From a virus (Duplodnaviria; Caudoviricetes): a stretch of DNA of 60,113 bases. Shown here in pieces: positions 25,534 through 42,041 of this stretch (positions within the stretch are counted from its first letter, which is position 1; each line of letters opens with the position of its first letter). The translations under genes and the position numbers were made by a program. The notes under the pieces were generated by a model. That model was not told the origin of the DNA. It made no database searches and saw only the letters and a list, made by a program, of their open reading frames with translations. The stretch spans positions 1 through 60,113 of IMG/VR virus record IMGVR_UViG_3300042466_000580; one strand, 5' to 3'.

Positions 25534-25570
25534 ATTGTGTCAAGGGTCTGGCGGCGGGCAATAGTTACGC
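25534..25570 (-). promoter_or_regulatory. Candidate promoter TTGCCC-N16-CACAAT for the capsid operon
   Basis: Shares the 18-mer with 17465-17482; intergenic. Confidence 0.55.
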
Positions 25571-28351: not shown

Positions 28352-28547
28352 CTTGATTACCCTTGGCCCGCTTCTTACGCGCCCGGTAGTCCTTCATGTA
28401 GGCAGCCTTGGCAGCTAGGTGTTCCTTGTGAGCCACAGGGTCCATCCGCAGCACCCGCATCCGCTCATGGTAAGTCTCCCGATCAGACTCCCGGTGACGA
28501 TCCTTCGTGATCTGATCAAAAACCGGACTGTTCTTCGGCCTGCCCAT
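28341..28547 (-). CDS. Small basic protein
   Basis: MGRPKNS...; GGAG RBS; resembles the divergent neighbour. Confidence 0.65.
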   Translation of the reverse strand: MGRPKNSPVFDQITKDRHRESDRETYHERMRVLRMDPVAHKEHLAAKAAYMKDYRARKKRAKGNQAGT

Positions 28548-28696
28548 GAACGTGTCTCCTAATGGGTGTAATCGAACCGCCCTGATTACAAACACCTTCA
28601 GAGAGGCGGGCAATCCTTTGGACAAGCAATGGACAAGTGACTTGTCTACTGTCCACTGACCATTGCCCGCTGGTGTACTCACTGGATACTCAGGGC

Positions 28697-29113
28697 ATGA
28701 GCAAGTCCAACACTCAGAAGGTGCGTGAGTACAGAGAGCGGCTCAAGGCAGACCCAGAGAGGTGGGCTGCATATCGGGCAAAGCAGTCTGGCTACCAACG
28801 CACCTGCCGACAGAAAGGCAGCGTGAGTACACCAGTGAGTACACCAAGGAAGCCAACCCAGGAGGAACGTGCGGCATTGCTGGCTGCGTTCGATGAGCCT
28901 GCCCCGTCAGTAGCGCACCTCGGCGGCAAACACGCAGCCCCAGCCACCGTCTACCACGGCATCCCACCTGACGCACTCATCAAGCAATACCAAGAACACC
29001 ACGCCAAGCAGCTTCCCGTGCCCCTAGCCGATCACCCCTTCATCAAAGCCCTCCAAGAGAGACTGCCATGCACCCTAGTCAAGGAACTGCCCCCCAAGGA
29101 GAAACCGAAGTGA
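28697..29113 (+). CDS. Basic hypothetical protein
   Basis: MSKSNTQKVREYRERLKADPERW...; follows TTGCCC-N16-GATACT. Confidence 0.65.
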   Translation: MSKSNTQKVREYRERLKADPERWAAYRAKQSGYQRTCRQKGSVSTPVSTPRKPTQEERAALLAAFDEPAPSVAHLGGKHAAPATVYHGIPPDALIKQYQEHHAKQLPVPLADHPFIKALQERLPCTLVKELPPKEKPK

Positions 29114-29504: not shown

Positions 29505-29520
29505 CTGGTTTCTGGCAGGG

Positions 29521-29787
29521 AGGGGTGTAATCCAGTTCTGGGATGGGGAAAAAGTCCGGGGGGGGAACTAACAGATAGGTGCGGGGGCGCGGGGGGGCTC
29601 GGGGGCCGCACACGCGATCACACGCCCGCGTTTCTTCGCCCGTGCGGGGATAGCCGCGAGCCTCCGCAAGCCCGCAGAACCGCAGCCACGGGCCTTGGCG
29701 GGCATTCCAGCGGGCGGGCGCGAGGGACCGCAGGGGAATCGTTGCCCCGTGGAACACTGTGGCAAGTTTTCGGCAGATTACACCCCT
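29521..29787. repeat. 12-bp inverted repeat AGGGGTGTAATC flanking a G-run-rich non-coding tract
   Basis: 29521-29532 is the exact reverse complement of 29776-29787. Confidence 0.7.
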
Positions 29788-29920
29788 TTCGGCTGACTAT
29801 CATCACCACCCCGATCATCATGCCCATCATTGTCGGCATGGTTTTCTGCCCGGTATCTGGCATGGTTTGGCTGGTATCGGCCAGACCATGATCGGAATCG
29901 GCCATCGTGCTTGGGTGCCT

Positions 29921-30028
29921 GCGCGGTGCTTTCCTGGGCTTGCCCGTGCGGTTCCTCATGGGCCTGTGCGGTGTCTTCCCCGGTTGGGTGTGCGGTGTCT
30001 TTCGTGCCCTCTCGCGTGCGCTGTCTTC
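29921..30028 (+). repeat. Five degenerate direct repeats, consensus GTGCGGTGTCTT
   Basis: Copies start at 29921, 29946, 29966, 29990 and 30016. Confidence 0.6.
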
Positions 30029-30044
30029 GTGTGTGTGTGCGCCT

Positions 30045-30079
30045 GGAATCTCCGGAGGAGATTTCGCCCTGTTGGTTGG
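30045..30079 (+). repeat. CGGAG-hairpin + CCCTGTTGG element, copy 1
   Basis: GGAATCTC-CGGAG-GAGATTTC-GCCCTGTTGGTTGG. Confidence 0.85.
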
Positions 30080-30134
30080 TGTCGGCAATCGACCACTCCG
30101 GTCGGTGCGGCAACCACAATCGGGGAGCGATGCA

Positions 30135-30479
30135 ATGCGGATCATTGAGCAACGGCTATGCGATGCGGTGAGAGCGGGGCGACCATTTCGGTCTGGCAAC
30201 ACTGTGGCCCGGGTCATGGTGACGGGTGGCTTTCGGGTGGAACTGCACGGGAATGCGATTGCTTGGGCGGCGGGGCGAAAGCCTGACGGGACGTTCCACG
30301 GTGTGACCATCGACCACTGTGGGTGGAAGACTGCGACCACCAAAAGCCGGATCAATGCCCTTCTGAGCGGCATCGGCATCAACAAGCGGGTCTATCAACG
30401 CGACGGGGCTTGGTTCATTTCCGACTTCGGCCTGCGGGGGCATTCGGACACTCCATTCGACCGCTATCACACGCTGTAG
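30135..30479 (+). CDS. Early hypothetical protein
   Basis: MRIIEQRL...ELHGNAIA...CGWKTATTKSRINALL; GGAG RBS. Confidence 0.8.
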   Translation: MRIIEQRLCDAVRAGRPFRSGNTVARVMVTGGFRVELHGNAIAWAAGRKPDGTFHGVTIDHCGWKTATTKSRINALLSGIGINKRVYQRDGAWFISDFGLRGHSDTPFDRYHTL

Positions 30480-30491
30480 TCACGCCCGCCT

Positions 30492-30524
30492 ACTCCACGG
30501 AGTGGAGTTCGCCCTGTTGGTTGG
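30492..30524 (+). repeat. CGGAG-hairpin element, copy 2
   Basis: ACTCCA-CGGAG-TGGAGT-TCGCCCTGTTGGTTGG. Confidence 0.85.
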
Positions 30525-30559
30525 CATCACCCCGAATTGGCCGATGGGGTTACTCGGCT

Positions 30560-30602
30560 CCCCCGGTGGATCACGTTGATTCACCGGGGGTTTTCTTTTC
30601 TT
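30560..30602 (+). terminator. Intrinsic terminator
   Basis: CCCCCGGTGGATC/GATTCACCGGGGG stem followed by TTTTCTTTTCTT. Confidence 0.75.
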
Positions 30603-30620
30603 CACGCAAAGGGATCACGC

Positions 30621-30860
30621 ATGTACCACGACATCATCACTGACGATCAGGACATCATCGGCACGGTCGAAATCTTCAAGTTCGACGGTGTGCGGGTTTG
30701 CGAGGGCGATTGCTGGGCTGACGAAGACGGCGAAACCCTCCCCGCCGGTTGGTACTGGTGGACCTGCGTCCCCGGTTGCCTGCCCGATTCTGACCCATTC
30801 GGCCCCTTCGCCACGAAGACGAAAGCAATGGACGCCGCGGAGCGTTCCTATCTGGACTGA
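30621..30860 (+). CDS. Early hypothetical protein
   Basis: 'GWYWWTCVPGCLPDSDPFGPF'; RBS present. Confidence 0.75.
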   Translation: MYHDIITDDQDIIGTVEIFKFDGVRVCEGDCWADEDGETLPAGWYWWTCVPGCLPDSDPFGPFATKTKAMDAAERSYLD

Positions 30861-30869
30861 CGCCCGCAT

Positions 30870-30903
30870 GACTCTCCGGAGGAGAGTTCACCCTGTTGGA
30901 TGG
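30870..30903 (+). repeat. CGGAG-hairpin element, copy 3
   Basis: GACTCTC-CGGAG-GAGAGTT-CACCCTGTTGGATGG. Confidence 0.85.
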
Positions 30904-30905
30904 TG

Positions 30906-30954
30906 GCGGTTGGCTGACGGAAGCCTTTCCCCGGTTCGACTCCGGGGCACCGCA
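30906..30954 (+). ncRNA. tRNA-like element lacking an anticodon arm
   Basis: GCGGT/ACCGC closing stem; GGCT-GACGGA-AGCC arm; CCCCGG-TTCGACT-CCGGGG T-arm. Confidence 0.55.
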
Positions 30955-30991
30955 CTGGTTACGGGTTCGATTACACACTGAGGGCACCATC

Positions 30992-31297
30992 ATGGGCAAA
31001 ATCACGCTTGATACCGACGTTTGCGGCGGGGCTTACTGCCTCATCGTCAATGACGATGGTTCGGACATTCTCATTCAGTCCGATTGGGACTTGCCAGGGG
31101 TTGCTTCCACGTTTGGGTGGAGCGTTCGGGATGTGAAAACGCCGGGACGGGACTGCGACCACCACGGGACTGACGGCACGGTGGATTGCCCAGAGTGCGG
31201 GCTGAAAGCCGGGACATTCATCAGCGAAGCTGGCGACTGGATCAACAGTAACGACGGTGCGTCCGTTGATGACCCGGGCTATTTCGATGGCGAGTAA
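30992..31297 (+). CDS. Early hypothetical protein (Cys/His motif)
   Basis: MGKITLD...CDHHGTDGTVDCPECG. Confidence 0.75.
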   Translation: MGKITLDTDVCGGAYCLIVNDDGSDILIQSDWDLPGVASTFGWSVRDVKTPGRDCDHHGTDGTVDCPECGLKAGTFISEAGDWINSNDGASVDDPGYFDGE

Positions 31298-31300
31298 CCA

Positions 31301-31353
31301 AGCCGAAACCGGGGAAACCCGGTCTGTCCGTAATGCGGGCACTGAAGATGGCT
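31301..31353 (+). ncRNA. Hammerhead ribozyme, type II (extra U after A9)
   Basis: AGCC-GAAA-CCGGG(GAAA)CCCGG-TC^-TGTCCG(TAATG)CGGGCA-CTGAAGA-T-GGCT; predicted cleavage after C31324. Confidence 0.85.
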
Positions 31354-31376
31354 ACACACACACAAGGGGTATCACA

Positions 31377-31784
31377 ATGGCTGAAACGCTGACGATTGGC
31401 GACGTTACCATCACGGTCTGCGGGCAGGATCGGGATTACGAGGGCCGCACTTGCTACGAGGTGTCGATTGCCTTCCCAGAGGGCTATTCCTACACCGACA
31501 AGCAGGGGGAAACGCAGTTTATCGACCGGGGTTTTATTCACCGGGAACGTGACCTGCGATCTGGCTGCCAAGGCGGGACTGAGCGGGAGGGGATGGAAAG
31601 CCTGCTTTCCTTCCTGACGGCGGCGGCGGAAGCCTACCGCTACACCATGCGGACGGGCCGCGAGAGCGACAACAGCGACCTTTTCCCGGCCTTCATCGTG
31701 GAATGGGCACACCAAAACGACAGCGAAATTCAGTCTGTCCAGTGCATGTACGAGTTCGACCGCTCGGGTGAAAGCCTCGCGTAA
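31377..31784 (+). CDS. Early hypothetical protein
   Basis: MAETLTIGD...; AAGGGG RBS. Confidence 0.75.
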   Translation: MAETLTIGDVTITVCGQDRDYEGRTCYEVSIAFPEGYSYTDKQGETQFIDRGFIHRERDLRSGCQGGTEREGMESLLSFLTAAAEAYRYTMRTGRESDNSDLFPAFIVEWAHQNDSEIQSVQCMYEFDRSGESLA

Positions 31785-31815
31785 TCAACGGAGTTGATTT
31801 CACCCTGTTGGATGG
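31783..31815 (+). repeat. CGGAG-hairpin element, copy 4
   Basis: AATCAA-CGGAG-TTGATT-TCACCCTGTTGGATGG. Confidence 0.85.
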
Positions 31816-31816
31816 C

Positions 31817-31863
31817 AGCGACGTTGGTTGACCGCAAAGTGGGTTCGATTCCCACTTGTCGCT
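31817..31863 (+). ncRNA. tRNA-like element lacking an anticodon arm
   Basis: 7-bp AGCGACG/TGTCGCT acceptor-like stem; short TTG..CAA arm; AGTGGG-TTCGATT-CCCACT T-arm. Confidence 0.6.
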
Positions 31864-31897
31864 CTGGTTCGATTGTTCACACCCTTGGAGAGCGACC

Positions 31898-32278
31898 ATG
31901 ACAAAGCGAGAAGAAATCGACGCGGTGAAAGCGTTCGTTGCCAGCCTGCCCCGGGATTCCTATGCCCGGGATGCACTGGAGCCGTTCCTGATGGAGTTTG
32001 AGAAGGGTGTCTATGCGGACTACGTTCCGACCGTTCACGACTCATGGCGGCACCGCCGGGAGGCTGACGAGGAAGCCGGTCAAGCGAGGAAGGTGCTGGC
32101 TGCGGTCAAGGAAGAAATCAAGCAGGCCAAAGCACGACTGCGTAATTGCTGCGTCGGCATGGGCACCCTGCTCGACCGGGCGAAGCAACTTCAGCACTCC
32201 ATCGACAACACGGCGGAAACCCTGAAGGGGCTGCACGGTGCGGCGGATGCACTCAACGAACGGATCGCCAGCATATAG
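31898..32278 (+). CDS. Early coiled-coil hypothetical protein
   Basis: MTKREEIDAV...; GGAG RBS. Confidence 0.75.
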   Translation: MTKREEIDAVKAFVASLPRDSYARDALEPFLMEFEKGVYADYVPTVHDSWRHRREADEEAGQARKVLAAVKEEIKQAKARLRNCCVGMGTLLDRAKQLQHSIDNTAETLKGLHGAADALNERIASI

Positions 32279-32327
32279 CGAAACCGGGGAAACCCGGTCT
32301 GTGGGTGTGACCCACACTGATGAGCTA
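32276..32327 (+). ncRNA. Hammerhead ribozyme, type II (canonical core)
   Basis: TAGC-GAAA-CCGGG(GAAA)CCCGG-TC^-TGTGGG(TGTGA)CCCACA-CTGATGA-GCTA; predicted cleavage after C32299. Confidence 0.92.
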
Positions 32328-32345
32328 CACACAAAAGGATCAACC

Positions 32346-32738
32346 ATGAAATTCGACCGGAAATTCGCCCAGTTTGTATGCGTTGGGGACACGATCAAGG
32401 CAGACGTTACTGACAAGTTGCAACTCGTTGCCACTCTCGTCTTCGACAGCGACTGCGACCCGCAAAACGAGGGCTGGTATGACGAGCCAGACGTTGAGCG
32501 GTGGAAGAATGACGAGTGGCATTTCGTGGGGGTTGTGTTGTCCGTTCAATCGCACGACGGCACGATCAAGAGGAACCTCGGCTCCCTCTGGGGAAACGAG
32601 GCCAACCTCAGGGACAATAACGACCACCTGACAGACGTTGCCAATGAGTTGATTGACGAGCGGGAAATCGTGGCCGCACTGCGGGAGATTTACGAGCCCG
32701 TAACCCGGGCGATTAAGACTCTCACACACACAGCCTAA
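32346..32738 (+). CDS. Early acidic hypothetical protein
   Basis: MKFDRKF...WKNDEWHFVGVVL...SLWG; AAGGA RBS. Confidence 0.75.
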   Translation: MKFDRKFAQFVCVGDTIKADVTDKLQLVATLVFDSDCDPQNEGWYDEPDVERWKNDEWHFVGVVLSVQSHDGTIKRNLGSLWGNEANLRDNNDHLTDVANELIDEREIVAALREIYEPVTRAIKTLTHTA

Positions 32739-32765
32739 CGGAGTTAGGCACGACCCTCTGGTTGG
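32733..32765 (+). repeat. CGGAG-hairpin element, copy 5 (variant)
   Basis: GCCTAA-CGGAG-TTAGGC-ACGACCCTCTGGTTGG. Confidence 0.75.
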
Positions 32766-32781
32766 TATCGGTTGGATGACG

Positions 32782-32813
32782 GCCCCGGCAATTTCGCCGG
32801 GGCTTTTCTTTTT
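32782..32813 (+). terminator. Intrinsic terminator
   Basis: GCCCCGGC-AATTTC-GCCGGGGC followed by TTTTCTTTTT. Confidence 0.8.
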
Positions 32814-32826
32814 CACGGGGCACACC

Positions 32827-33105
32827 ATGCAAACGCAATGGGAATGGACACGGGTCAACAACGACACGAACGGCAATGGCCGGTTCGTCTGCCACTTCCT
32901 GCCACTGGTGCGGGACATGGCTGGCAAGGGATGGGGCACCAACAGCTTGTACAAGCTGGCCTGCAAGCGGGCCAACAAGCTGGGCGGTCGCAAGTACCAC
33001 ACGAAATCGTTCGGTGGTGGGGTGGTTTTCCAAGCGTATTCCAGCACGTTGCCGGACTTGGAGCGACGGATTCTTGAACTGCAAACCGAAGGGGGTGACG
33101 CATGA
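32827..33105 (+). CDS. Early hypothetical phage protein
   Basis: 'RVNNDTNGNGRFVCHFL...GGRKYHTKSFGGGVVFQ'. Confidence 0.75.
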   Translation: MQTQWEWTRVNNDTNGNGRFVCHFLPLVRDMAGKGWGTNSLYKLACKRANKLGGRKYHTKSFGGGVVFQAYSSTLPDLERRILELQTEGGDA

Positions 33106-33608
33106 GCAGCATGGCATATGACGAACTGACCGAAATCGCCGGGGAGTATGGGCTGACACTCACGTTTGAGTTCATGCCACAGGTCTTCCCCGAAGACACC
33201 AAGTCCACGGACATGAGCATGAAATGGCTGGTGACTGTGCGGCATCGGGGCAACCCGTTGCTGGCCACCACCTACACCCAAGGGGTGGCTCACTGCCCGT
33301 CCTATTCGGGCGTCAAGTGGGGACGGGGCCTGACCGTTGCCCAGCTTGAGAACCTGCGGCGTGACTGTGCCAGCCCGCAGCCCAAGGGTGGGCCGAAGGA
33401 ACCGCTGACCGCTCTGTGGTGCATCGCTTCCGACTGCCAGACGGTGATGGACGGTGGATCGTTTGAGGGATGGGCCCGTGAGCTTGGCTATGACACGGAC
33501 TCCCGCAAGGCGGAAGGCATCTATGACGAGTGCGTTCGCCAGTACCTGAAGCTGAAGCAGGCCATCGGTGACGAGGGCATCCTGACTCTGGCTGCGGTCG
33601 AACTGTGA
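33102..33608 (+). CDS. Early hypothetical protein
   Basis: 'SFEGWARELGYDTDSRKAE.IY..C'; ATGA overlap. Confidence 0.8.
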   Translation: MSSMAYDELTEIAGEYGLTLTFEFMPQVFPEDTKSTDMSMKWLVTVRHRGNPLLATTYTQGVAHCPSYSGVKWGRGLTVAQLENLRRDCASPQPKGGPKEPLTALWCIASDCQTVMDGGSFEGWARELGYDTDSRKAEGIYDECVRQYLKLKQAIGDEGILTLAAVEL

Positions 33609-33690
33609 CGGCACCCTGCCACCCCCTCTGTTCAGAGCAGAGGGGAGAGTTGGGGATCGTTTGAGTTACACACACGAAAGGAAACGCACG

Positions 33691-33870
33691 ATGATTCTCG
33701 GGAAAAGCAGTGAACTGCGGAACTACAGGGGCTTTGTTTATGACGGCGGGCACGGCGGGCCGTATTGGATTGTCGGCTGCTTGTCGGCGGGCACGTTCAG
33801 CAACCTCGCTGACCTTCGCCGGTACGTTGACGAGAACCTTTGGGTCTGCCCAAGAAATGCTGGCGGCTGA
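33691..33870 (+). CDS. Small early protein
   Basis: AAGGA RBS; MILGKSSE... Confidence 0.6.
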   Translation: MILGKSSELRNYRGFVYDGGHGGPYWIVGCLSAGTFSNLADLRRYVDENLWVCPRNAGG

Positions 33871-33905
33871 CTGAACACACATCCCATTACACGACGAGGT
33901 GACGA

Positions 33906-34124
33906 ATGACCCTGAAAACGACGGTCGAACTGACGAGGGGTGAGCTTGGCATCCTTGCCGCTGCCACCCTTGGCGAGTGGACAGAGGCGGATAGGTTGCG
34001 GATAGATGGCAACCGCGACGGTTGGTATGACAAGAAAGCGAAGGAGCGGGTGGAAGTCCACCTGTACGAGACTGACAAGCTGTTCAACAAACTTAGGAAC
34101 CTAATCAAGGAGATGGACGCATGA
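33906..34124 (+). CDS. Small early protein
   Basis: GAGGTG RBS; 72 aa. Confidence 0.7.
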   Translation: MTLKTTVELTRGELGILAAATLGEWTEADRLRIDGNRDGWYDKKAKERVEVHLYETDKLFNKLRNLIKEMDA

Positions 34125-34405
34125 GCAAGCACACACCGGGACCGTGGGATACTGGGGCGGGCGACATGACTGTTCGCCTCAACCGTCTGGCCGATGAGAT
34201 TGCCAATCGGTTTGGCGACCACTCTGACCGTCAGGTCGAGGGCAATGCTGCCCTGCTCTTGGCTGCCCCCGAGCTACTGGCTGCGCTGAAGGAGGTGGCA
34301 GAAGGTTGTGAGTCCAGACTGCGAAAGGGCAAGGACAGCGGCGATCTGGAAACGCTGCGTCTGTGCCGTGCCGCAATCAACAAGGCAGAAGGGAGGGGTG
34401 AGTGA
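34121..34405 (+). CDS. Phage protein of the 'HTPGPW...NA.L.AAAPELL' type
   Basis: Motifs at both ends are typical of a widespread phage hypothetical family. Confidence 0.8.
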   Translation: MSKHTPGPWDTGAGDMTVRLNRLADEIANRFGDHSDRQVEGNAALLLAAPELLAALKEVAEGCESRLRKGKDSGDLETLRLCRAAINKAEGRGE

Positions 34406-34475
34406 GCGACAACCTATGGGCCTTGCTAGTGGCGGGCCTGATGGTGCTGCACCTCATGTGTAGTGAGTGACACAC

Positions 34476-34509
34476 GACTGTTCGGAGAACAGTTCACCCT
34501 GTTGGTTGG
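34476..34509 (+). repeat. CGGAG-hairpin element, copy 6
   Basis: GACTGTT-CGGAG-AACAGTT-CACCCTGTTGGTTGG. Confidence 0.85.
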
Positions 34510-34515
34510 TATCGA

Positions 34516-34548
34516 CCCTCGGCAATTCCGCCGGGGGTTTTTCTTTTT
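34516..34548 (+). terminator. Intrinsic terminator
   Basis: CCCTCGGC-AATTCC-GCCGGGGG followed by TTTTTCTTTTT. Confidence 0.8.
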
Positions 34549-34565
34549 CACAAAGGAACTTTGAC

Positions 34566-34979
34566 ATGGCGACGAGCGACATCATTGCGGCGATGGCAGC
34601 GGGCACCACGGCGACGGCAACCAAGACGGTGGGCAAGGGTAAGCGGGCGGTCGAGGTGACCATCACCCGTACTGCCCCGGCGGTGGTGGTGGTGGACGAG
34701 ACTGTGACCGACGAGCCGGTCAGCTACACCGGCAAGCTGCCAGTGGATGAGGGCAAGGTGGTAACCGAAATCCTCCCCGGCTTGTCTCTTGTCCGGTACT
34801 CGCGTGGCTACACGGCACTGCGGGTGAAGGGCAAGGCATGGGGTGGTAACAAGGTGACGATTGGCAGGCCGCTCTGGCGGGAAGACTTGCTCGCCCTTGG
34901 CCGTGCCCTCCTGGCGGATGCAGAGGGAGCCCTGTCCTACGATGAGGCCCACGGCAAAGAAGAAGTTGTGCCGTTCTGA
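34566..34979 (+). CDS. Hypothetical protein
   Basis: MATSDII...; AAGGA RBS; acidic C-terminus ending PF. Confidence 0.75.
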   Translation: MATSDIIAAMAAGTTATATKTVGKGKRAVEVTITRTAPAVVVVDETVTDEPVSYTGKLPVDEGKVVTEILPGLSLVRYSRGYTALRVKGKAWGGNKVTIGRPLWREDLLALGRALLADAEGALSYDEAHGKEEVVPF

Positions 34980-35003
34980 ACACATACCACAAGGAGATTC
35001 GAC

Positions 35004-35495
35004 ATGGCAGCGTTAGACCCAAGGCCGGTGAAGGAAAGGATTCTGTCCAGCATCTCCAAGCCTGACGGGGAGGGCGGGTGCTGGGTTTGGCAGGGAGTAA
35101 CACTTCCCCGTGGGTACGGTCAGATCAGCGTCCACTCTCAAAGGCATTACGCCCATCGACTGTCTTACGAGACTTTTGTTGGGCCTATCCCTGACGGCTT
35201 GGACATCATGCACCTGTGCGACAACCCGTCTTGCGTCAACCCGGCTCATCTGACACCGGGTACACGCAAGAGAAACATGAATGACGCATCTTTGAAGGGA
35301 CGAGTCCCGCATGGGGAGAGGCACTGGGGTGCAAAGCTGACAGAAGACAAAGCGCGTGAGTTGATTGCGGTCAGGGATCGGGACGGTCTGTCTTACAGAA
35401 ATCTGGCCAAGCTGTTTGGCATCAGCACGATGCAGGCTTGCCGGATATGCACGGGAAAGAGGTGGGCTGGTCTTTCAAGAAAGGAGGACGAGTAA
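35004..35495 (+). CDS. HNH homing endonuclease
   Basis: 'CWVWQG...GYGQI...AHRLSY...MHLCDNPSCVNPAHL..GT...N' plus HTH. Confidence 0.9.
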   Translation: MAALDPRPVKERILSSISKPDGEGGCWVWQGVTLPRGYGQISVHSQRHYAHRLSYETFVGPIPDGLDIMHLCDNPSCVNPAHLTPGTRKRNMNDASLKGRVPHGERHWGAKLTEDKARELIAVRDRDGLSYRNLAKLFGISTMQACRICTGKRWAGLSRKEDE

Positions 35496-35704
35496 TGATC
35501 CGATTCGATTCCCCCATCCTCACCGCATCACAAGCGGCGAAGGTGGCGGGCTGTTCGGACAACTACATGCGGCGGTTGCTGGATGGCGGCAAGGCCACCG
35601 GGTACTACACCGGAACGGTCTGGCTGATGGAACTGAACGAGGCACTGAGGGTTCGCGGTGAACTTACGGTGCGGTCAATAGGCAAACGAAAGGCAGGCAA
35701 GTGA
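35495..35704 (+). CDS. Excisionase-like helix-turn-helix protein
   Basis: 'ILTASQAAKVAGCSDNYMRRLLDGG...G.VWL'. Confidence 0.7.
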   Translation: MIRFDSPILTASQAAKVAGCSDNYMRRLLDGGKATGYYTGTVWLMELNEALRVRGELTVRSIGKRKAGK

Positions 35705-36048
35705 TGAACGATAGATACAGGATGTGTCACATGACGCCGAAGGTAAGCGTGGAGTTGGAGTCCGGGGACACAGCGGAGCTTACGCTCGGTGACTGCATGA
35801 GGGTGATAAACCAACTCATGCACCACAAGTTCCTACAGTTTGACGTTGACCTGCCGCGAACGCTGATGGGCAGGGATATTGCAGAGTGGGAACAGGTCGG
35901 TGTTCACGGGACTGGTGAGTCTTGCTGGCAGTACGAGGACGATCTCGACAACCTGACCATCACTCTCCAGCTTGACGAGATCACTGCGATTGGTGGCCTG
36001 CCCCGGGAGGAGTTCCGTAACATCCCTAAAGAGAAGGAGGTGGAGTGA
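35701..36048 (+). CDS. Hypothetical protein
   Basis: Coupled ORF, 115 aa. Confidence 0.65.
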   Translation: MMNDRYRMCHMTPKVSVELESGDTAELTLGDCMRVINQLMHHKFLQFDVDLPRTLMGRDIAEWEQVGVHGTGESCWQYEDDLDNLTITLQLDEITAIGGLPREEFRNIPKEKEVE

Positions 36049-36368
36049 TGGCAAAGAAGCCAAGCCGGGGCCGTGAGTACAAGGCGCAGCGTGAGTTCCT
36101 CATGCTGCAAGTACAGCGGGCTTTGATCCGGGGAATCTTGCGGCTGCATGACAAGGGCTGGACCCCCGACGAGATCGCAGCTTCGGTCGATGTGATGATG
36201 AAGGCCATCGGTGACACGATGGTCAAAGACCTTGCAACCAACGGGGAGATTGACCCCAAGACCTACGAGTTCACGATCCGCAGCGTGGAGTCGGTGATCA
36301 GCGCGGACAAGTATGCGGAAACCGTGGCCGATTGCTTTGAGGAAATGAAACGAAAGGAAGGTAAGTGA
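36045..36368 (+). CDS. Hypothetical protein
   Basis: Coupled ORF, 107 aa. Confidence 0.65.
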   Translation: MMAKKPSRGREYKAQREFLMLQVQRALIRGILRLHDKGWTPDEIAASVDVMMKAIGDTMVKDLATNGEIDPKTYEFTIRSVESVISADKYAETVADCFEEMKRKEGK

Positions 36369-36685
36369 TGAGAACGACGATGACTCTGGTGCTGGCACTG
36401 GTAGCTGGCACAGCGTTCGGTCAGTACCCCTATGCCATACCACCGGCATGGGGATACATGAATAAGAACGAGGCCATGAGGCAGCAACAGTTTGAGAATC
36501 AGCGGTGGCAACGTGAGCAGCGGGAGAAGGAAGCGAACTACCTATGGGGCGGCGACCCTATGGAGTACGCAGAGCGAGGTGCCCGCATTCGGATGATGAA
36601 GGAACAGACCCGGACCCTGCGGTTGCAGAATGACTACCGCGAGAAGACGGGGAACTTCCTCATCGACAACAATCCGTTCAGGTAG
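36365..36685 (+). CDS. Secreted hypothetical protein
   Basis: Signal peptide MRTTMTLVLALVAGTAFG. Confidence 0.65.
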   Translation: MMRTTMTLVLALVAGTAFGQYPYAIPPAWGYMNKNEAMRQQQFENQRWQREQREKEANYLWGGDPMEYAERGARIRMMKEQTRTLRLQNDYREKTGNFLIDNNPFR

Positions 36686-36714
36686 TTGACGTATACGCTT
36701 GTATACTGTATCGT
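36686..36714 (+). promoter_or_regulatory. Sigma70-like promoter TTGACG-N17-TATCGT
   Basis: Intergenic, near-consensus; predicted start falls just before hairpin copy 7. Confidence 0.55.
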
Positions 36715-36725
36715 GTGTGTGCGTT

Positions 36726-36756
36726 ACTGTTCGGAGAACAGTTCGCCCTGTTGGTT
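36726..36756 (+). repeat. CGGAG-hairpin element, copy 7
   Basis: ACTGTT-CGGAG-AACAGT-TCGCCCTGTTGGTT. Confidence 0.85.
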
Positions 36757-36775
36757 AGTAGCAACGATGGACTTG

Positions 36776-36813
36776 GCCCCGGCAGCACTTCGCTGTCCGG
36801 GGCTTTTTGTTTT
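36776..36813 (+). terminator. Intrinsic terminator
   Basis: GCCCCGGCAGC/GCTGTCCGGGGC stem followed by TTTTTGTTTT. Confidence 0.75.
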
Positions 36814-36833
36814 CACACCCAAAGGAATTGACC

Positions 36834-37703
36834 ATGACCCCTCTGAATAGTTCGATTGTCGAGCGTGTCCGTAACTTCTTTCCCGATGTGACCAAGCAGT
36901 CGCTGTTCTCCCCGGACATGCGGCCCACTCCCCACTGTGGCCTGTTCAGAAATGACACGGGAGCTTGCTTCGGTCCTGCGGTCAGTGCCAACTACGAGCT
37001 TCACACCACCGATGACATCTGTGCCTTGGTGGAAGCGAGCGAGCCGGTGCTGGGTGAGTGCGGCGACGTTCAGTTGGGCTTCCGAGATGGACACTATGTC
37101 TCCATCCAGCCCACCAAGGAGCATCTGTTTACCGTTCACAAGAACGACACGGTGTTCCCCCGGCTGATCGTGACGGCCCGCTATGGCGAGGCTTTCACTG
37201 CCACCATCGGGTTGTTCCGGGTGGTGTGCGGCAACCTCGCCATCTTCCAGAAGGTGGCGGGAACCTCGGTGCGGATCAGGCACACCTACTCCCTCCGCTC
37301 CAAGATGGAAGACCTCATCGAAGACTTCCACTCGCTGCGGAATGGGGTGGGCAACCTTGAGGTGGCGATCAAGGAGATGGCTGACCGCAAGGTGCGGCTG
37401 GCTGATTTCCTCGACGGCATCTACGGCACCCCGCTTGAGAGTGCAACGGAGCGGTCGATCACCATGCACCGCAACCGCACTGAGCAGATCGTGCGGCGGC
37501 TGATGCGTGAGCAGGTTGCATTGGGTGAGCCCACTGCAATCAACGAGGTCAGTGCATGGGCCGCGTTCAATGCGGTACAGGGATTCATCCAGCATGACTC
37601 CCGCCGCAAGGGCAAGCCGGGTGATTTCGACCGGGCAATCATGGCTCTGTCGGACGCGAAGGTTCTTCAGGCCCAGCACTTGGCCATGACGATGGCGGTC
37701 TAG
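36834..37703 (+). CDS. DUF932 family protein
   Basis: 'GLFRVVCGN...VRIRHT' and 'SAWAAFNAVQGFIQH' motifs. Confidence 0.85.
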   Translation: MTPLNSSIVERVRNFFPDVTKQSLFSPDMRPTPHCGLFRNDTGACFGPAVSANYELHTTDDICALVEASEPVLGECGDVQLGFRDGHYVSIQPTKEHLFTVHKNDTVFPRLIVTARYGEAFTATIGLFRVVCGNLAIFQKVAGTSVRIRHTYSLRSKMEDLIEDFHSLRNGVGNLEVAIKEMADRKVRLADFLDGIYGTPLESATERSITMHRNRTEQIVRRLMREQVALGEPTAINEVSAWAAFNAVQGFIQHDSRRKGKPGDFDRAIMALSDAKVLQAQHLAMTMAV

Positions 37704-37768
37704 TCACAAGGCAGTGCGGGGCGGGGAGTGCGTTGCTCCTCGCCCCGCTGGCCACAAGGGGAACGAAC

Positions 37769-38077
37769 ATGAACAGGCTGACCGAATACCGAATGAGCGA
37801 GCGACGGCTACTGAAACCGGGGACACGATTCACCGCGAAGGGCGGGCCGGTCTACCAGTTAGCCGATGGGACTGCCGTGCCACTGGCATCACGCGGACCC
37901 TTTGAGTTCATCGCCTACTGTCAGGCGGATGGGTACGACTTTATCCAGGCACGGGATCGGGACGGGTGTAGTGCGGTGCTGCACCTGACAGGGGAGAGGA
38001 AGACTGCCAGCCCTGAGATTATCGGGCGACCTTACACGTTGGGGAAGGTGTTTCGTAAACAACCAAGGAGGAGGTGA
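37769..38077 (+). CDS. Hypothetical protein
   Basis: AAGGGG RBS; MNRLTEYR... Confidence 0.7.
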   Translation: MNRLTEYRMSERRLLKPGTRFTAKGGPVYQLADGTAVPLASRGPFEFIAYCQADGYDFIQARDRDGCSAVLHLTGERKTASPEIIGRPYTLGKVFRKQPRRR

Positions 38078-38078
38078 A

Positions 38079-38249
38079 ATGTTCAAGTTCAGATACAAGG
38101 ATGGGCTCGCTCAGACTGAGACTGAAATGATTCGTGCCCTGCGTTTGCGGGGCTATGCCGTTGTGGTTGTCAAGTCTGACGCGATGCGGCGAGGCTTTAT
38201 CGAAGAGGCTATGCGGAAGGCAGCAACACAGAAAGAGAGGGCGACATGA
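38079..38249 (+). CDS. Small hypothetical protein (56 aa)
   Basis: GGAGG RBS; manual translation MFKFRYKDGLAQ...; stop overlaps the next ATG. Confidence 0.6.
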   Translation: MFKFRYKDGLAQTETEMIRALRLRGYAVVVVKSDAMRRGFIEEAMRKAATQKERAT

Positions 38250-38503
38250 TCGCACTGATTGAGATCGCGTTTCTATACTACTGGTGTAATACATTCAGCA
38301 CCTCGGCCAACGACGGTGCGACCTACCGGCAGCGGGTCAAGGTGACTGCCGCCATGATCGTGTTCCTCATTGTGGCTGGGCATTCCGCCAGCAAGGATTT
38401 GTTTGCCGTCCTCGCTGGCTGGGCGGTAGCCATAGAGGTGGTGTGTTTTGTCCTGGCGTTCCTTGACTATGACGAGCGACTCTTTCCCCGGGAGGTGAAT
38501 TGA
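38246..38503 (+). CDS. Membrane protein
   Basis: 85 aa with 2-3 hydrophobic segments. Confidence 0.65.
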   Translation: MIALIEIAFLYYWCNTFSTSANDGATYRQRVKVTAAMIVFLIVAGHSASKDLFAVLAGWAVAIEVVCFVLAFLDYDERLFPREVN

Positions 38504-38700
38504 TGGACCCATACGAAGAACGAAGCGTAGCCCCAGTGGACCGCAACTCCCTGGAGTACCGGCTCTACCAGTTGGCTATCGCTTGCTACCGATACCTCGA
38601 CGCGAAGGACCCAAAGCAAGCTGAGTTGAAGCAGCTTTGCAATGACCTACCGCATGAGTACGAAGAGAGAAGATTCCGCGCACACCGAGAGAGGAACTGA
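38503..38700 (+). CDS. Hypothetical protein
   Basis: Coupled ORF. Confidence 0.6.
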   Translation: MDPYEERSVAPVDRNSLEYRLYQLAIACYRYLDAKDPKQAELKQLCNDLPHEYEERRFRAHRERN

Positions 38701-38702
38701 CC

Positions 38703-38933
38703 ATGACCACCGTAACCCTGACTGAGCGGCAGGAAGAAATCCTGCGGTACATTGCCAGCCACATTGACATCAATGGGTTTCAACCCAGCTTCAGAGAGAT
38801 GATGGCACGGTTCAAGATCAGGAGCCCCAACGGAATCAAGGGGCACCTTCAAGCACTGGAACGTAAGGGAATCATTGCGTCGAATTACCAAACCTCACGG
38901 GCAATTTCATTTAACTGGAAGGAGTGGCTGTAA
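38703..38933 (+). CDS. LexA-type DNA-binding-domain-only protein
   Basis: 'LTERQEEILRYI...GFQPSFRE....F.I.SPNG...HLQALERKG.I......SRAI'; no peptidase domain. Confidence 0.9.
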   Translation: MTTVTLTERQEEILRYIASHIDINGFQPSFREMMARFKIRSPNGIKGHLQALERKGIIASNYQTSRAISFNWKEWL

Positions 38934-39802
38934 TGCCCACATGCTTTCTTTATTCCAGGGTGTCAACAGAAGATCAAAATTTGTCGCCCGCTTGGCAAGC
39001 CGAAGTCTGCAAGAACCACTACGAGTTCAGCCTAAAGTCAAAGGGGTACGCACTGCACCCCGAAGTCTTTCATGACCACGGCGTGTCGGCCTATCATGTT
39101 GACTGGCGTGACAGGCCGCGAGCCCGTGAGATGTTCAACCTCGTCAAACCGGGTGACATCATCGTGGTGGCAAAGCAAGATCGTGCCTTCCGATCCAGCC
39201 GAGACAGAGAAAATACTTTCTACTTTCTCAACAAGGTTGGCATCGACATCGTGATACTTGATGCGATGCTCGACACTAGCACTGCCGCCGGGAAGTTTGC
39301 TGCGTCCGTGATAGCAGCGCAGTGCCAGTTTGAGTCTGACGTTAAGAGCGAAAGACAGAAGGCAGCCCACTCCATCCGGCGGCAGCGGAAGACACCGATG
39401 AAAAAGTTGCCACCCCCAGGCTGGAAGCTGGACAAGATGATTGACGAGCTAGTCCCTGACTGGGATGAGCGGCGGCTGATGGCCACGGTCTATGACCAGC
39501 GTGACAAGGGCTATCGCTCGGTGGCGGAAGCGGTGCGGGTACTCAAGGCGGCGGGCACACTGCGGGCCAATGGCTGCAAGTACACGCAGTCATGGTTCAC
39601 CAGGGCCTACTCTGTCTTCCTGAGGAACTTCCCTTGCGAAGGCTACCAATGCCACTGCCGGTCGGAGCATAAGGCAAAGGCTCACATGAAGGTGGGCAAG
39701 CTCGTCAAGAAACGGAAGGACCGGATTGCAAAGCTAGTCCGGCCTCACGACGTAGCTTCCCCAGCTTCGCAGCAAGTAGCTTCGCAGCCTGCCGGGTACT
39801 GA
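38933..39802 (+). CDS. Serine recombinase (resolvase/invertase catalytic domain with C-terminal extension)
   Basis: YSRVST catalytic motif; 'DRAFRS'; 'LDTSTAAGK'; 'PPPGWK'. Confidence 0.9.
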   Translation: MPTCFLYSRVSTEDQNLSPAWQAEVCKNHYEFSLKSKGYALHPEVFHDHGVSAYHVDWRDRPRAREMFNLVKPGDIIVVAKQDRAFRSSRDRENTFYFLNKVGIDIVILDAMLDTSTAAGKFAASVIAAQCQFESDVKSERQKAAHSIRRQRKTPMKKLPPPGWKLDKMIDELVPDWDERRLMATVYDQRDKGYRSVAEAVRVLKAAGTLRANGCKYTQSWFTRAYSVFLRNFPCEGYQCHCRSEHKAKAHMKVGKLVKKRKDRIAKLVRPHDVASPASQQVASQPAGY

Positions 39803-40244
39803 TCCCCTTGGACTTGGCCATCTTGCGGATACTAACCCCCTCTATCACGCTCTCTGTGATCCACTCCCTGTCCTCGCTGGGCAGGGAGTGGAGGGCGGTC
39901 AGTATCTCGCTGGTGATGGGGTCATCTTCCAGCCTCTCGGGTGGCAGCCTTCTTTCAATGGCTGTTATCTGAATTCTGAATGCACTTCCGTTGCGACTAC
40001 GGATTTCTGTGCGGCACGACTTGAGAAGTTCGTGCATGATCGCCCGACTGAAGTAAGCCTTCGGGTCCCGGGCGGGATCGAACGTGCGGGCTGCCATCAC
40101 ACACGCCAGCCTAGCCGCCGACTCCAAATCCTCCCTGTCTACCACCTCTCTAAGACACGGGTAGTTCCCCATGAAGTAGTGCAGGCACGGGGCCACAAAC
40201 TCCAGGGCCCTCTCGGCCATAGCTTGCTGGTCTGGGGTGAGCAT
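39705..40244 (-). CDS. Sigma-70 family RNA polymerase sigma factor (regions 2 and 4)
   Basis: 'EDLESAARLACVMAARTFDP...AYF' region 2; 'ALHSLPSEDRE...EGVSIRKMAKSKGIS' region 4. Confidence 0.8.
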   Translation of the reverse strand: MLTPDQQAMAERALEFVAPCLHYFMGNYPCLREVVDREDLESAARLACVMAARTFDPARDPKAYFSRAIMHELLKSCRTEIRSRNGSAFRIQITAIERRLPPERLEDDPITSEILTALHSLPSEDREWITESVIEGVSIRKMAKSKGISTRQAAKLLAAKLGKLRREAGLALQSGPSVS

Positions 40245-40382
40245 AGTCACAGGCGCGCATGGGTTGCCTCCCGATACGTCCGGCTGCAATGCGATTCATA
40301 GCATTCCCGGCACCGGACATCTTCACTCGGCATACCGTATGGGTCAACATTGACGGTGGCCTTTTTGCCACAGTCAACGCAC

Positions 40383-40727
40383 TCACCAGGGGACTCGGGA
40401 TGGCTTGTTTCTTCGCTTGCCATGCGCGTACTCCTCTATCTTTTTACGGGCCACTTCGGGGGAAACCTGCAACAGTTCGCAGCAATCTTCCATAGTCACT
40501 ATCCCCACCCCACCCTTTAGCCACCGCTCGGCGGCAGCCCAGTCATCCCGCTGCTGCATGGCCCAGGAGCGGCAGGCAAAAGCCTCCACTCCCCGGGCCT
40601 GCCGGAATAGGTTGCGACTCTCGGCTATCTTCTGGGCGGCATCATGCAGGAGCCCCACGCACAGTAACCTCCAGCCCCCTTGCAGGGTCAGGTTGTCGAG
40701 GTGCCGTGTCTCTATGTCGCCAGTCAT
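40383..40727 (-). CDS. Hypothetical protein
   Basis: 114 aa, coupled ORF. Confidence 0.7.
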   Translation of the reverse strand: MTGDIETRHLDNLTLQGGWRLLCVGLLHDAAQKIAESRNLFRQARGVEAFACRSWAMQQRDDWAAAERWLKGGVGIVTMEDCCELLQVSPEVARKKIEEYAHGKRRNKPSRVPW

Positions 40728-41334: not shown

Positions 41335-41575
41335 CCTCCTTCTCTCGCTTGGCCATTGCCTTCTTTAACCAAGCTGGCAGCTTTGGTTTGTGCCCCAGGA
41401 ACAAGTACCTGTGCTGCACCCGGAGAGTCCCTTGAGTTACCGGACGAAGAACGTGTTGGTAGGTGTAACGCTTGCCCTCAACGTCATAGGTCAGGTAGTC
41501 AACAAGGTCATCCTCTTGCAGCTTCTCTGCCCGCCCGCAAAGCGGACCACCAACGTAGACAACCCTGCGTTTCAT
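41315..41575 (-). CDS. Hypothetical protein
   Basis: 'VGGPLCG' motif; coupled ORF. Confidence 0.65.
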   Translation of the reverse strand: MKRRVVYVGGPLCGRAEKLQEDDLVDYLTYDVEGKRYTYQHVLRPVTQGTLRVQHRYLFLGHKPKLPAWLKKAMAKREKEGGHAGE

Positions 41576-41886: not shown

Positions 41887-42041
41887 GCCTATCTCCTTTC
41901 GATTCGGTACTCGGGACATCCACAGACAACACAGGGCTGGTTGTTTTCTTTGACGGCGTTGCACCGATTGCAGAAGCGAGTGCATCCGCCACGATCCTTC
42001 TCATTGCATTCCGGCAGCGGCAGCAGCAGTTGTCTTGGCAT

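Follow-up and report, generated by a model that had tools for sequence, protein, structure and literature searches.

In lambda nut and HK022 put, and between pR' and tR', a conserved-loop hairpin and a linear element lie in the leader between promoter and terminator. In the T7 early region and in mitochondria, structured spacers within one transcript—RNase III sites and tRNAs, respectively—define mRNA ends. The promoter-early stem-loop cassettes (PeSLs) of T4-type phages are linkers that mediate cassette shuffling (PMC2839356, PMC4122927), and in prophages and phages single genes have been described with hammerhead ribozymes at their flanks (Perreault et al. 2011, PMC3088659; Rfam RF02276). 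The window analyzed here, a stretch of 60,113 nucleotides, is the complete genome of a temperate lake phage, in which an earlier note had seen a candidate for an undescribed system of RNA-processing modules. Not all of it is undescribed: the array is a variation on PeSL-like linkers and hammerhead-punctuated phage operons, and both kinds are already known from the sources just cited.

What kind of region carries the array? The block at 30045-39802 contains single genes and short gene groups linked by a few conserved, portable types of folded spacer, and it may be a hyperplastic accessory-gene region, a claim that shares the tentative standing of the whole explanation given below. The phage encodes an integrase, which marks it as temperate, and a relative with terminal repeats has the block placed mid-genome, so the "early" timing once assigned to it was not upheld. 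Pfam and PHROG scans covered 30 proteins of the plus-strand block and its neighbors. The phage gene set includes an ERF recombinase, a PDDEXK nuclease, HNH nucleases, and, at the block end, a serine recombinase; the open reading frame at 39705-40289 is sigma-like, and a 925-aa protein combines a Pro/Gly-rich composition with a membrane segment. For the three largest unknown proteins, no PDB relatives were found. Host assignment was based on one binned contig (L103). By sight, CA-rich runs precede ribosome-binding sites (e.g., 31354-31363, 32325-32334, and 33665-33674).

Sequence reading found all eleven spacers in the places and order previously reported, each on the plus strand. Seven begin with the "CGGAG" element, here termed H17: a hairpin with seven perfect base pairs and a purine triloop, followed by a 17-nt tail. 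H17-1 (30047-30079; spacer 30047-30104), the block's first module, is preceded by a 540-nt noncoding stretch and joins the hairpin AATCTCC/GGA/GGAGATT to the 17-mer TTCGCCCTGTTGGTTGG. Between it and the ribosome-binding site of the first gene (30135-30479) stands a plain stem-loop, CGACC-ACTCC-GGTCG (30090-30104), which is retained in a relative with a G-U change. Intrinsic terminators follow H17-2 (30492-30524; spacer 30492-30600; terminator 30560-30600, with a 14-bp stem and T run), H17-5 (32733-32765; spacer 32733-32814; terminator 32781-32814), H17-6 (34477-34509; spacer 34477-34549; terminator 34514-34549), and H17-7 (36726-36758; spacer 36726-36812; terminator 36775-36812). The tail of H17-5 is of the type found in relatives L016 and L017 (CGACCCTCTGGTTGG). 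H17-3 (30871-30903; spacer 30871-30972) leads into a tRNA-like fold (30903-30972) with an enclosing stem (30903-09/30950-55), an inner hairpin, a T-arm (30929-47, loop TTCGACT), and a second GGGTTCGATT motif at 30963-72. The fold behind H17-4 (31783-31815; spacer 31783-31878) spans 31817-31878, with an enclosing stem (31817-22/31858-63) and a T-arm (31839-55, loop TTCGATT); a second GGTTCGATT motif follows. In both H17-4 and H17-5, the upstream gene's stop codon lies in the stem. The other four spacers are two type II hammerheads and two GC hairpins without a T run. One hairpin (33623-33645) is kept in relatives between differing flanking genes, and the longer one (37715-37747, 13 pairs) closes off a downstream gene of the block, the DUF932 gene at 36834-37703, whose other neighbor is the H17-7 terminator.

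How specific is H17 to this block? The motif CGGAG-N6-TCRCCCTGTTGG occurs six times in the window at zero mismatches, always on the plus strand; shuffled sequences average 0.53 matches with as many as three mismatches allowed, and 0 of 100 shuffles reached six. A seventh, diverged copy at 32731-32769 is H17-5. A covariance model likewise finds seven copies in the window, 7/7 in the block and on the plus strand, and these are the window's only GRA-triloop hairpins with at least six perfect pairs. The same pattern holds in three other whole records. Strong matches in a 4.1-Mb metagenome-assembled genome (MAG) are confined to a 7.6-kb phage-like contig; a different contig has a single weak match (E 0.018). 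Outside the block H17 was found only once, ahead of an HNH gene inserted in the relatives' late operon. Among 24 copies, 168 of 168 stem cells are paired, with both-side changes at all 7 pairs and a covariation score matched by 0 of 500 shuffles. With the window and relatives taken together, 32 distinct copies have 224 stem pairs, of which 223 are Watson-Crick, one is G-U, and none is mismatched; loops are GGA (26), GAA (3), AGA (2), or AAA (1). The stems are AT-rich (36% GC vs. 58% for the genome), start at or overlap the upstream stop codon in many copies, and go with the upstream gene. Tails, which are homogenized within a genome, come in three lineage-specific versions; they are C-rich (CCCT/CCTC), with C at +14 from the loop center in 32/32 copies, a purine at +11 in 31/32, and TGG in 29-30 of 32. 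Every H17 in the window precedes another fold—four terminators, two T-arm tRNA-like folds, and the plain stem—so that three of the seven, along with the copy on the HNH gene, have no terminator behind them. We found no published description of this hairpin-plus-tail signal.

Relatives reveal what happens at the spacers. In five of them, 47 of 58 homology endpoints, which are not independent events, fall within 30 nt of a spacer (24% expected), and homology covers 52-92% of spacers vs. 22-54% of coding sequence. Other strains have contigs in which module 5 is joined to module 6, or module 1 to module 3, and spacers of differing kinds substitute for one another at gene boundaries. Because homology breaks at the spacers, genes are exchanged cassette by cassette, and comparison at the sequence level shows the spacers to be points where relatives swapped, lost, or gained genes. 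Part of what had been proposed is thereby borne out: a limited repertoire of interchangeable structured spacers divides the cassettes, spacer positions are conserved across relatives, and replacement and loss of genes are located there. PeSLs are likewise composite motifs, short and conserved, that lie between genes and include a stem-loop or terminator (PMC2839356); both systems are concentrated in hyperplastic regions rich in small genes of unknown function and sit at insertion, deletion, and replacement breakpoints between close relatives, and in some PeSL subclasses the stem-loop comes between the promoter and the ribosome-binding site, immediately ahead of the latter. Each PeSL, however, has a strong sigma-70-like promoter, which here accompanies one of seven modules, upstream of H17, and the variable perfect arms, fixed purine triloop, and lineage-specific tail of H17 are absent from the PeSL description.

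Both hammerheads (31301-31360 and 32276-32333, with predicted cuts after C31324 and C32299) give full-model matches to Rfam Hammerhead_II (E 0.004 and 0.031), at scores of 30.8 and 27.5 bits that lie below the gathering score of 37. Four distinct copies show compensatory change at five pairs, with 95% of cells paired. Judged by intact core and by these changes in relatives, both are real type II ribozymes, as had been claimed, and part at least of the punctuation would therefore be RNA self-cleavage; they would cleave polycistronic RNA in such a way that every end so created has a hairpin. Phage hammerheads as a phenomenon are already published, and the published ones match ours in type II fold, consensus core, an intergenic position that leaves a few nucleotides to the following ribosome-binding site, several copies per operon, and varying flanking genes. 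Ours differ in alternating within one array with H17 units, tRNA-like folds, and GC hairpins, and in scoring below the Rfam threshold. As in the T7 early region and in mitochondria, structured spacers stand between genes, with cutting here predicted, but H17 has no long double-stranded stems of the RNase III type beside it. Because ARAGORN finds no tRNA genes, the tRNA-like spacers are T-arm mimics; they differ from mitochondrial tRNAs in having no anticodon arm and a gap of 2 nt between T-arm and closing stem. Host tRNA-processing enzymes probably handle these folds, and RNase P may cleave at them.

Is H17 itself transcribed? A genome-wide scan gave eight terminator sites: the four at or below -18 kcal/mol all lie directly behind an H17, and the remaining four (-14.5 to -16.5 kcal/mol) lie inside or antisense to genes. 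A putative sigma-70-type promoter, TTGACG-17-TATCGT (36686-36714), ends 11 nt before the H17-7 stem. The form TTGACR-N17-TAnnnT stands directly 5' of H17-7 in the window, L014, L015, L016, and L017, making five of the six orthologues with upstream sequence (L103 lacks it), and the same promoter type precedes 16S rRNA in 3/3 leaders of the MAG's family. The motif is no rarer in the window than chance predicts (2 found vs. 2.6 expected), and it is conservation that argues for a promoter. An RNA-library contig links a different upstream gene to the hairpin, tail, and terminator (30491-30594) and extends 16 nt beyond them; this evidence consists of contigs, in which DNA carry-over is possible. Like nut and put, H17 combines a conserved-loop hairpin with a conserved linear element in lineage-specific versions. 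It differs in being repeated before each terminator, not placed once per operon, and in that not every copy has a terminator behind it. The 17-mer and the host-family rrn boxA are dissimilar, and no N, Q, or NusG-like protein was recognized here: NusG and Antiterm profiles had no match, and Phage_antitermQ reached only 11.7 bits (cut-off 26), within the sigma-like frame.

What, then, does H17 do? The earlier note took it for RNA-processing punctuation, in which a host or phage endoribonuclease would cut the single-stranded 17-mer, capping the upstream mRNA 3' with the 7-bp hairpin and the downstream one 5' with a stem, terminator, or tRNA-like fold. H17 and hammerhead junctions alike would then yield hairpin-capped ends, the spacer kinds replace one another at gene boundaries, the hairpin often meets the upstream stop codon, and the tail's best-kept core, TGG-W-T, recalls the R-N-cut-W-U preference of RNase E. 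We consider this unlikely. It gives no reason why strong terminators occur only behind H17; a cut at module 7 would just strip the 5' hairpin from a transcript starting there; and lineage-specific tails call for a lineage-specific enzyme, none of which appeared in the scans of 30 proteins. The position of H17, always before a terminator, tRNA-like fold, or stem and once behind a sigma-70-type promoter, better fits control or linkage. Somewhat less probable still is that H17 plus terminator forms a small-RNA unit—5' hairpin, single-stranded 17-nt seed, and terminator with U tail—transcribed from a promoter of its own in module 7 or arising from 3' UTRs in modules 2, 5, and 6, and acting in trans on host or phage mRNAs. 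Promoter, H17, and terminator would make a complete small gene of ~90 nt, the genome's only strong terminators belong to H17 units, and variable stems with a conserved, C-rich tail are as in seed-bearing small RNAs. Yet pairing between tails and downstream ribosome-binding regions does not exceed that of shuffled tails (mean z -0.09 across 21 modules) or of segments drawn at random from the window, terminators are missing from 3/7 copies, and H17 sits in the mRNA leader at the HNH gene and module 1.

Might H17 act as DNA? Its few G-U pairs (1/224 vs. 13/106 in adjoining terminators), AT-rich stems, and C-GRA-G loop, all expected of a DNA hairpin like N4's, argue for DNA-level action and count against our best explanation. 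An extruded-hairpin promoter, as used by the N4 virion RNA polymerase and starting at purine +11, would fit the match to N4 P1-P3, which have 5-7-bp stems with variable arms, CGAAG/CGGAG loops with a central purine and C:G closing pair, a base conserved at a distance of 11 nt from the loop center, and several copies in a block of small genes (PMC4496689, PMC3715699). It would also suit the perfect stems, unlike those of the neighboring RNA terminators, and the placing of H17 before the block's first gene and the HNH gene. In the N4 sequence, however, the loop is on the template strand of the genes that it drives, where ours is on the sense strand, and the conserved sequence is on the hairpin's other side. 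A search that recovers both N4 polymerases gave no T7- or N4-like polymerase domain for either the window or the relative with terminal repeats, and no DxDGD motif lies outside the portal gene; the three largest unknown proteins offer no candidate through PDB relatives, and the 925-aa protein has the Pro/Gly-rich, membrane-segment makeup noted above. Immediately upstream of H17-7 there is a conserved sigma-70-type promoter, and transcripts begun directly before a strong terminator would stop there. We regard such a promoter as improbable. Most improbable is an H17 without any expression role, a recombination linker or selfish cassette end serving, for example, as a cruciform attractive to a structure-specific nuclease or as mere homology. 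Crossovers do map to the modules, stems are perfect palindromes that travel with the upstream gene while tails are homogenized per genome, and recombinases and nucleases are encoded; but fixed orientation, 7-bp length, purine loop, and constant TGG spacing point to recognition by a directional machine, and the strict pairing with terminators and leaders would be left unaccounted for. A site for a sequence-specific dimeric recombinase was ruled out by the variable arms.

Given the strand of the loop, the lack of a recognized phage RNA polymerase, and the sigma-70-type promoter upstream, H17 is most likely a transcribed control site and not a cutting module. Of the RNA-processing system first envisaged, then, the cassettes, interchangeable spacers, and hammerhead cleavage stand, and the commonest module shows no sign of being an RNA cutter. 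Our best explanation as a whole—a cassette block with hammerhead cutting, cis control by H17, and exchange at spacers—falls a little short of an even chance. Under it, H17 would be transcribed and recognized in cis by a lineage-specific factor, on which the passage of polymerase or transcript beyond the next structure would depend, as in nut/put antitermination or attenuation, and would itself be neither nuclease module nor N4-type promoter. Every terminator-bearing cassette would have its own read-through signal, and cassettes would be exchanged through homology between the repeated 17-mers, the part that PeSLs play in T4-type phages.

Where in the phage does the spacer array sit? CheckV estimates the 60,113-base IMG/VR record to be complete, and near-identical DNA is present in many lake-water metagenomes; a DNA search of the "phages" collection matched no close relative of the window. 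The window encodes a P22-like portal, a large terminase, collagen-like tail fibres, an SF2 helicase, an ERF recombinase, and a PDDEXK nuclease, as well as a tyrosine integrase (PF00589; 48931-49851, + strand), which makes the phage temperate. Its genes lie on the - strand throughout, save for a + strand block at ~28.7-39.8 kb that holds the array. The block codes for small proteins without a known function (Kyano_Gp96, TreK-like, DUF932, an HNH nuclease, and several function-less PHROGs), and these accessory genes are likely anti-defence. A 289-aa serine recombinase (Resolvase domain; 38933-39802, + strand) stands at the far end of the block and closes it in every relative extending that far.

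Several features flank the array. Between the - strand operon and the + strand genes, a divergent region (28546-28700) with a palindrome, GACAAGTCACTTGTC, and repeated GGACAAG looks like an operator. A 540-nt, G-rich noncoding stretch (29505-30045) has three GTGCGGTGTCTT-like repeats, and immediately ahead of module 1 is a block (CTCTCGCGTG..GCTGTCTTTCGTGTGTG) kept across lineages. An RNA-library contig spans 29570-29786 within this stretch; the RNA evidence consists of contigs of one metatranscriptome run with 5% of words, which show no transcript ends and in which parts of the block without cover carry no meaning. On the other side, a 194-aa ORF (39705-40289, - strand) has weak matches to Sigma70 regions 2 and 4, matches the PHROG "RNA polymerase sigma factor" (E 2.4e-8), and resembles an ECF-type sigma factor; a subthreshold Phage_antitermQ match falls on the same stretch, and the ORF shares ~98 bp at its 3' end with the convergent gene for the serine recombinase. 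Further along the - strand (40724-41254 and 41572-41985), an N-terminal domain of dATP/dGTP diphosphohydrolase (PF18909, E 8e-16) has a weak MazG domain close by; such enzymes are associated with phages in which the bases of the DNA are modified. Finally, 527 nt at 43981-44507 have no ORF on the gene strand and contain inverted repeats and a T-arm-like GGGTTCGACCC. This gap has no Rfam match and may represent attP or the gene of an RNA.

The earlier note had described the array as gene cassettes separated by interchangeable RNA-processing modules, and all of the spacers it listed between 30045 and 37770 are in place by reading of the sequence: seven modules headed by the "CGGAG" element, which we call H17, two hammerheads, and two GC hairpins. 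This anatomy is real, repeated, and conserved, far beyond chance. H17 consists of a 7-bp stem and a 3-nt loop, followed by TTCRCCCTGTTGGWTGG. Six exact pattern matches and a seventh, diverged copy (H17-1 to H17-7, heading modules 1-7) occur in the window, all on the + strand, against a chance expectation of none. With a covariance model of 24 copies, seven H17 are found in the window, every one inside the block, and a window scan for GRA-triloop hairpins with at least six perfect pairs returned none beyond the H17 copies.

How strictly is the element conserved? We compared 32 distinct copies, drawn from the window, five related virus contigs, a contig of a metagenome-assembled genome (MAG), and metagenome contigs. 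The stem is 7 bp long in 32/32, with 223 Watson-Crick pairs, one G-U, and no mismatch; changes occur on both sides at all seven pairs, and slid or shuffled controls collapse. The neighbouring terminator stems have 13 G-U among 106 predicted pairs. GC content of the six outer H17 pairs is 36%, as against 58% for the genome. The loop is purine-only (GGA in 26 copies, GAA in 3, AGA in 2, AAA in 1), and C:G closes it in 30 of the 32. Spacing in the 17-nt tail is constant, with a purine 11 nt from the loop centre in 31/32 copies and a C three bases further in 32/32; TGG is present in 29-30. The 5' half of the tail has three versions, each uniform per lineage: one in the window, the related contig L014, and the MAG contig L103, one in relatives L016 and L017, and one in relative L015. 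Module 5 of the window has the L016/L017 type, which evidently came in together with its cassette. The arms vary between copies of one genome and often include the upstream gene's stop codon; thus, the hairpin travels with the preceding gene, and the tail is a shared linker.

H17 also occurs outside the window. In relative L008 (4746-5721), and also in L006 and L007, an HNH endonuclease gene with its own H17 and plain stem is inserted between the small and large terminase genes (window 19128/19281); the window does not have this insertion. The distant DUF932 loci L145 and L146 have no H17. L103, a contig of 7.6 kb from the bin of a lake Planctomycetaceae MAG, has five H17 modules and genes homologous to three of the block; the remainder of the 4.1-Mb MAG gave one weak H17 match only (E 0.018), on another contig. 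The binning of L103 is a weak pointer to a Planctomycetaceae host. Among 120 single matches inspected from a motif scan of a genome collection, 119 had no hairpin and represent chance, and one, L103, is a true relative.

A stable fold follows H17 in every case. In four modules (2, 5, 6, and 7) it is a canonical intrinsic terminator, and these are the four strongest in the genome: a genome-wide scan gave eight sites, the remaining four being weak and inside or antisense to genes. The fold of modules 3 and 4 has a covarying T-arm (loop TTCGAYT) and an acceptor-like enclosing stem, and a second GGTTCGATT motif comes after it; module 1 has a plain stem. The T-arm covaries in six copies, the enclosing stem lies 2 nt away from it, and the alifold consensus is weak. 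ARAGORN found 0 tRNA genes in the window, and the sole tRNA-clan match in Rfam was tRNA-Sec (18.5 bits, E 9.2); the tRNA-like folds are not called tRNAs. Their processing by RNase P or RNase Z would be plausible. Directly 5' of H17-6 lies a possible 21-codon hydrophobic mini-ORF (MSDNLWALLVAGLMVLHLMCSE; 34405-34470, + strand).

Are the two hammerheads genuine? Both (31301-31360 and 32276-32333) align over the whole Rfam type II model (RF02276), with E values of 0.004 and 0.031, and four further copies were found in relatives. Scores of 30.8 and 27.5 bits in the window and 27.5-32.3 in relatives all fall below the Rfam gathering threshold of 37 bits. The core CUGANGA ... GAAA and a cleavable GUC are intact in both window copies and the four in relatives, with A, U, or C at position 7. 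Stems I and II show compensatory substitutions at 5 of 16 pairs among four distinct sequences, and 0/500 shuffles reach this covariation score. Across the same four sequences, 95% of cells are paired in three helices with an open stem II, the 3 unpaired cells being a one-column shift of stem II in one row. On this sequence evidence, both spacers are type II hammerheads of a known kind. Cuts are predicted after C31324 and C32299; the upstream RNA would end in stem III, and the downstream RNA would start with stem I, followed by a CA-rich run and then a ribosome-binding site. In the available text of Perreault et al. (PMC3088659), several hammerheads flank single genes of varying identity in prophages and are proposed to process long phage transcripts; the window hammerheads have exactly this arrangement.

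Do the spacers also mark points of genetic exchange? Cassette behaviour at module boundaries, as proposed in the earlier note, is borne out by the relatives. Homology with five of them is patchy, covering 52-92% of the spacers vs. 22-54% of coding sequence. A total of 47/58 homology endpoints lie no more than 30 nt from a spacer, where 24% are expected, although the endpoints share ancestry and a binomial P value therefore overstates their independence; the other endpoints are at overlapping gene boundaries. In lake-metagenome contigs of other strains, the gene at 30992-31297 is replaced, the gene at 31898-32278 is replaced along with hammerhead 2, and modules 5 and 6, like modules 1 and 3, are directly joined.

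This cassette behaviour is that of the PeSLs of T4-type phages, described in the available text of two papers (PMC2839356, PMC4122927) as composite promoter/stem-loop motifs that act as recombination linkers in hyperplastic regions. As with PeSLs so described, the block spacers are indel or replacement breakpoints between relatives and have a stem-loop or terminator within a motif sited between small genes of a hyperplastic region. Unlike PeSLs, which have a sigma-70-like promoter per motif in those accounts, only 1/7 window modules has one, upstream of H17. E. coli-type promoter scans gave counts no higher than those of shuffles in each third of the genome and are powerless here. The spacer array is thus a set of PeSL-like linkers built on a different, structure-defined signal and mixed with hammerheads and tRNA mimics. 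An integron attC array, which has an IntI-type tyrosine recombinase beside it and R''/R' core sites, was considered and rejected: the recombinase closing the block is of the serine type, the tyrosine integrase is 9 kb off, and the perfect 17-bp palindrome of H17 lacks paired core sites. The suggestion in the earlier note that the system is undescribed does not hold in full. Hammerhead operons and PeSL linkers are published, but we found no description of a combined hammerhead/tRNA-like phage processing array in the literature at the level of listings and abstracts.

What, then, does H17 do? Gene-by-gene cutting of early transcripts, the function first proposed for all modules, probably holds for the hammerheads and possibly for the tRNA mimics, but is probably wrong for H17, the commonest module. 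In module 7, a candidate promoter, TTGACR-N17-TAnnnT, ends 11 nt 5' of the H17-7 stem, and H17 and a terminator follow; the other modules come after genes. Both hexamers are kept in the window, L014, L015, L016, and L017 despite diverged surroundings (L103 is without them), and promoters of this type also precede rRNA in the MAG's family (3/3 leaders). This conserved element directly upstream would, if a real promoter, place H17-7 at the very start of a transcript, followed by the terminator and then the DUF932 gene. The promoter spacer (36692-36708) contains repeated GTATAC in the window or ATGTA in relatives, which may be a repressor site. Three features lead us to read H17 as a transcribed cis site: the succession of promoter, H17, terminator, and gene, terminators that are strictly coupled to H17, and tails that differ by lineage. 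A lineage-specific factor would recognise the transcribed element and decide passage through the next structure, as in nut/put antitermination or an attenuator, and each terminator-bearing cassette would carry its own signal. We give this reading somewhat less than even weight, because no N-, Q-, or NusG-like protein is recognisable (NusG and Antiterm profiles gave no match, and Phage_antitermQ scored 11.7 bits vs. a cut-off of 26, within the sigma-like ORF), the tail is unlike the host-family boxA (GATCTTTGACAATT)—so that an rrn boxA mimic was rejected—three window copies have no terminator, and the stems, AT-rich and free of G-U, resemble those of DNA hairpins more than those of RNA hairpins. 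The first gene after module 1 was tried as the lineage-specific factor and dropped; its products are unrelated proteins of 114, 67, and 255 aa, and it is therefore just another swapped cassette.

Other readings of H17 take its hairpin as DNA. An N4-style mini-hairpin on the non-template strand, forming in the opened or negatively supercoiled DNA of the transcribing host polymerase, could recruit a lineage-specific factor and bring about terminator read-through, much as the ops element recruits RfaH. This would explain the perfect, AT-rich, G-U-free stems, the sense-strand purine triloop, the fixed tail spacing, and the strict terminator pairing, and, if true, a portable "hairpin plus terminator" switch would travel with each gene cassette; we nevertheless regard it as improbable. 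A promoter on the hairpin is a long shot to the same degree, for all the striking likeness of H17 to N4 early promoters. These have CGAAG or CGGAG loops and 5-7-bp stems in the available text of PMC4496689, in agreement with three early promoter hairpins in the N4 record we inspected; H17 resembles them in having a 7-bp stem with an RRA loop in every copy and a C:G closing pair in nearly all. In N4, however, the CGRAG loop is on the - strand and the driven genes on the + strand, so that the loop is template, whereas the H17 loop and genes are both on the + strand. A six-frame search for the T7/N4 polymerase family (PF00940) gave 0 matches in the window and in a relative with terminal repeats, vs. 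2 in N4 as positive control. The DxDGD two-barrel polymerase motif was absent outside the portal gene, PDB searches with the three largest unknown proteins returned nothing, an atlas search for a hidden RNA polymerase gave only a lead to polyvalent-protein domains, and homologues of the 925-aa protein carried no names. The conserved sigma-70-type element upstream of H17-7 likewise counts against a hairpin promoter.

A role for H17 as the promoter used by the phage sigma factor was rejected; a different repeated motif, GCGTAACTATTGCCCGCC, precedes late-region genes. It has four - strand copies (25553-25570, 17465-17482, 21874-21891, and 9066-9083), two exact and two with 3 mismatches, where 0.05 are expected; both exact copies fall in gaps ahead of - strand genes, and the motif may be a late promoter or regulator site. 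Among the remaining readings, a nuclease site between two protective hairpins is unlikely, and a small-RNA unit with the tail as seed is doubtful enough to rank as decidedly unlikely, given tail pairing with downstream ribosome-binding regions no better than chance. The tail as a cis anti-Shine-Dalgarno was rejected as well, being not above chance overall and pairing strongly only in "stem" type modules. That H17 is purely a recombination linker is very improbable.

The array sets unrelated RNA or DNA punctuation—ribozymes, tRNA mimics, signal-led terminators, and plain hairpins—side by side as interchangeable cassette joints, and the same joints are crossover points in natural populations. 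H17 is small (~35 nt), structurally sharply defined, and readily testable, and its sequence can be used to trace this phage group in lake metagenomes. Should it prove to be a portable signal for read-through or processing, it would make a new, compact control part and a model for how phage accessory (likely anti-defence) genes can be both exchangeable and correctly expressed.
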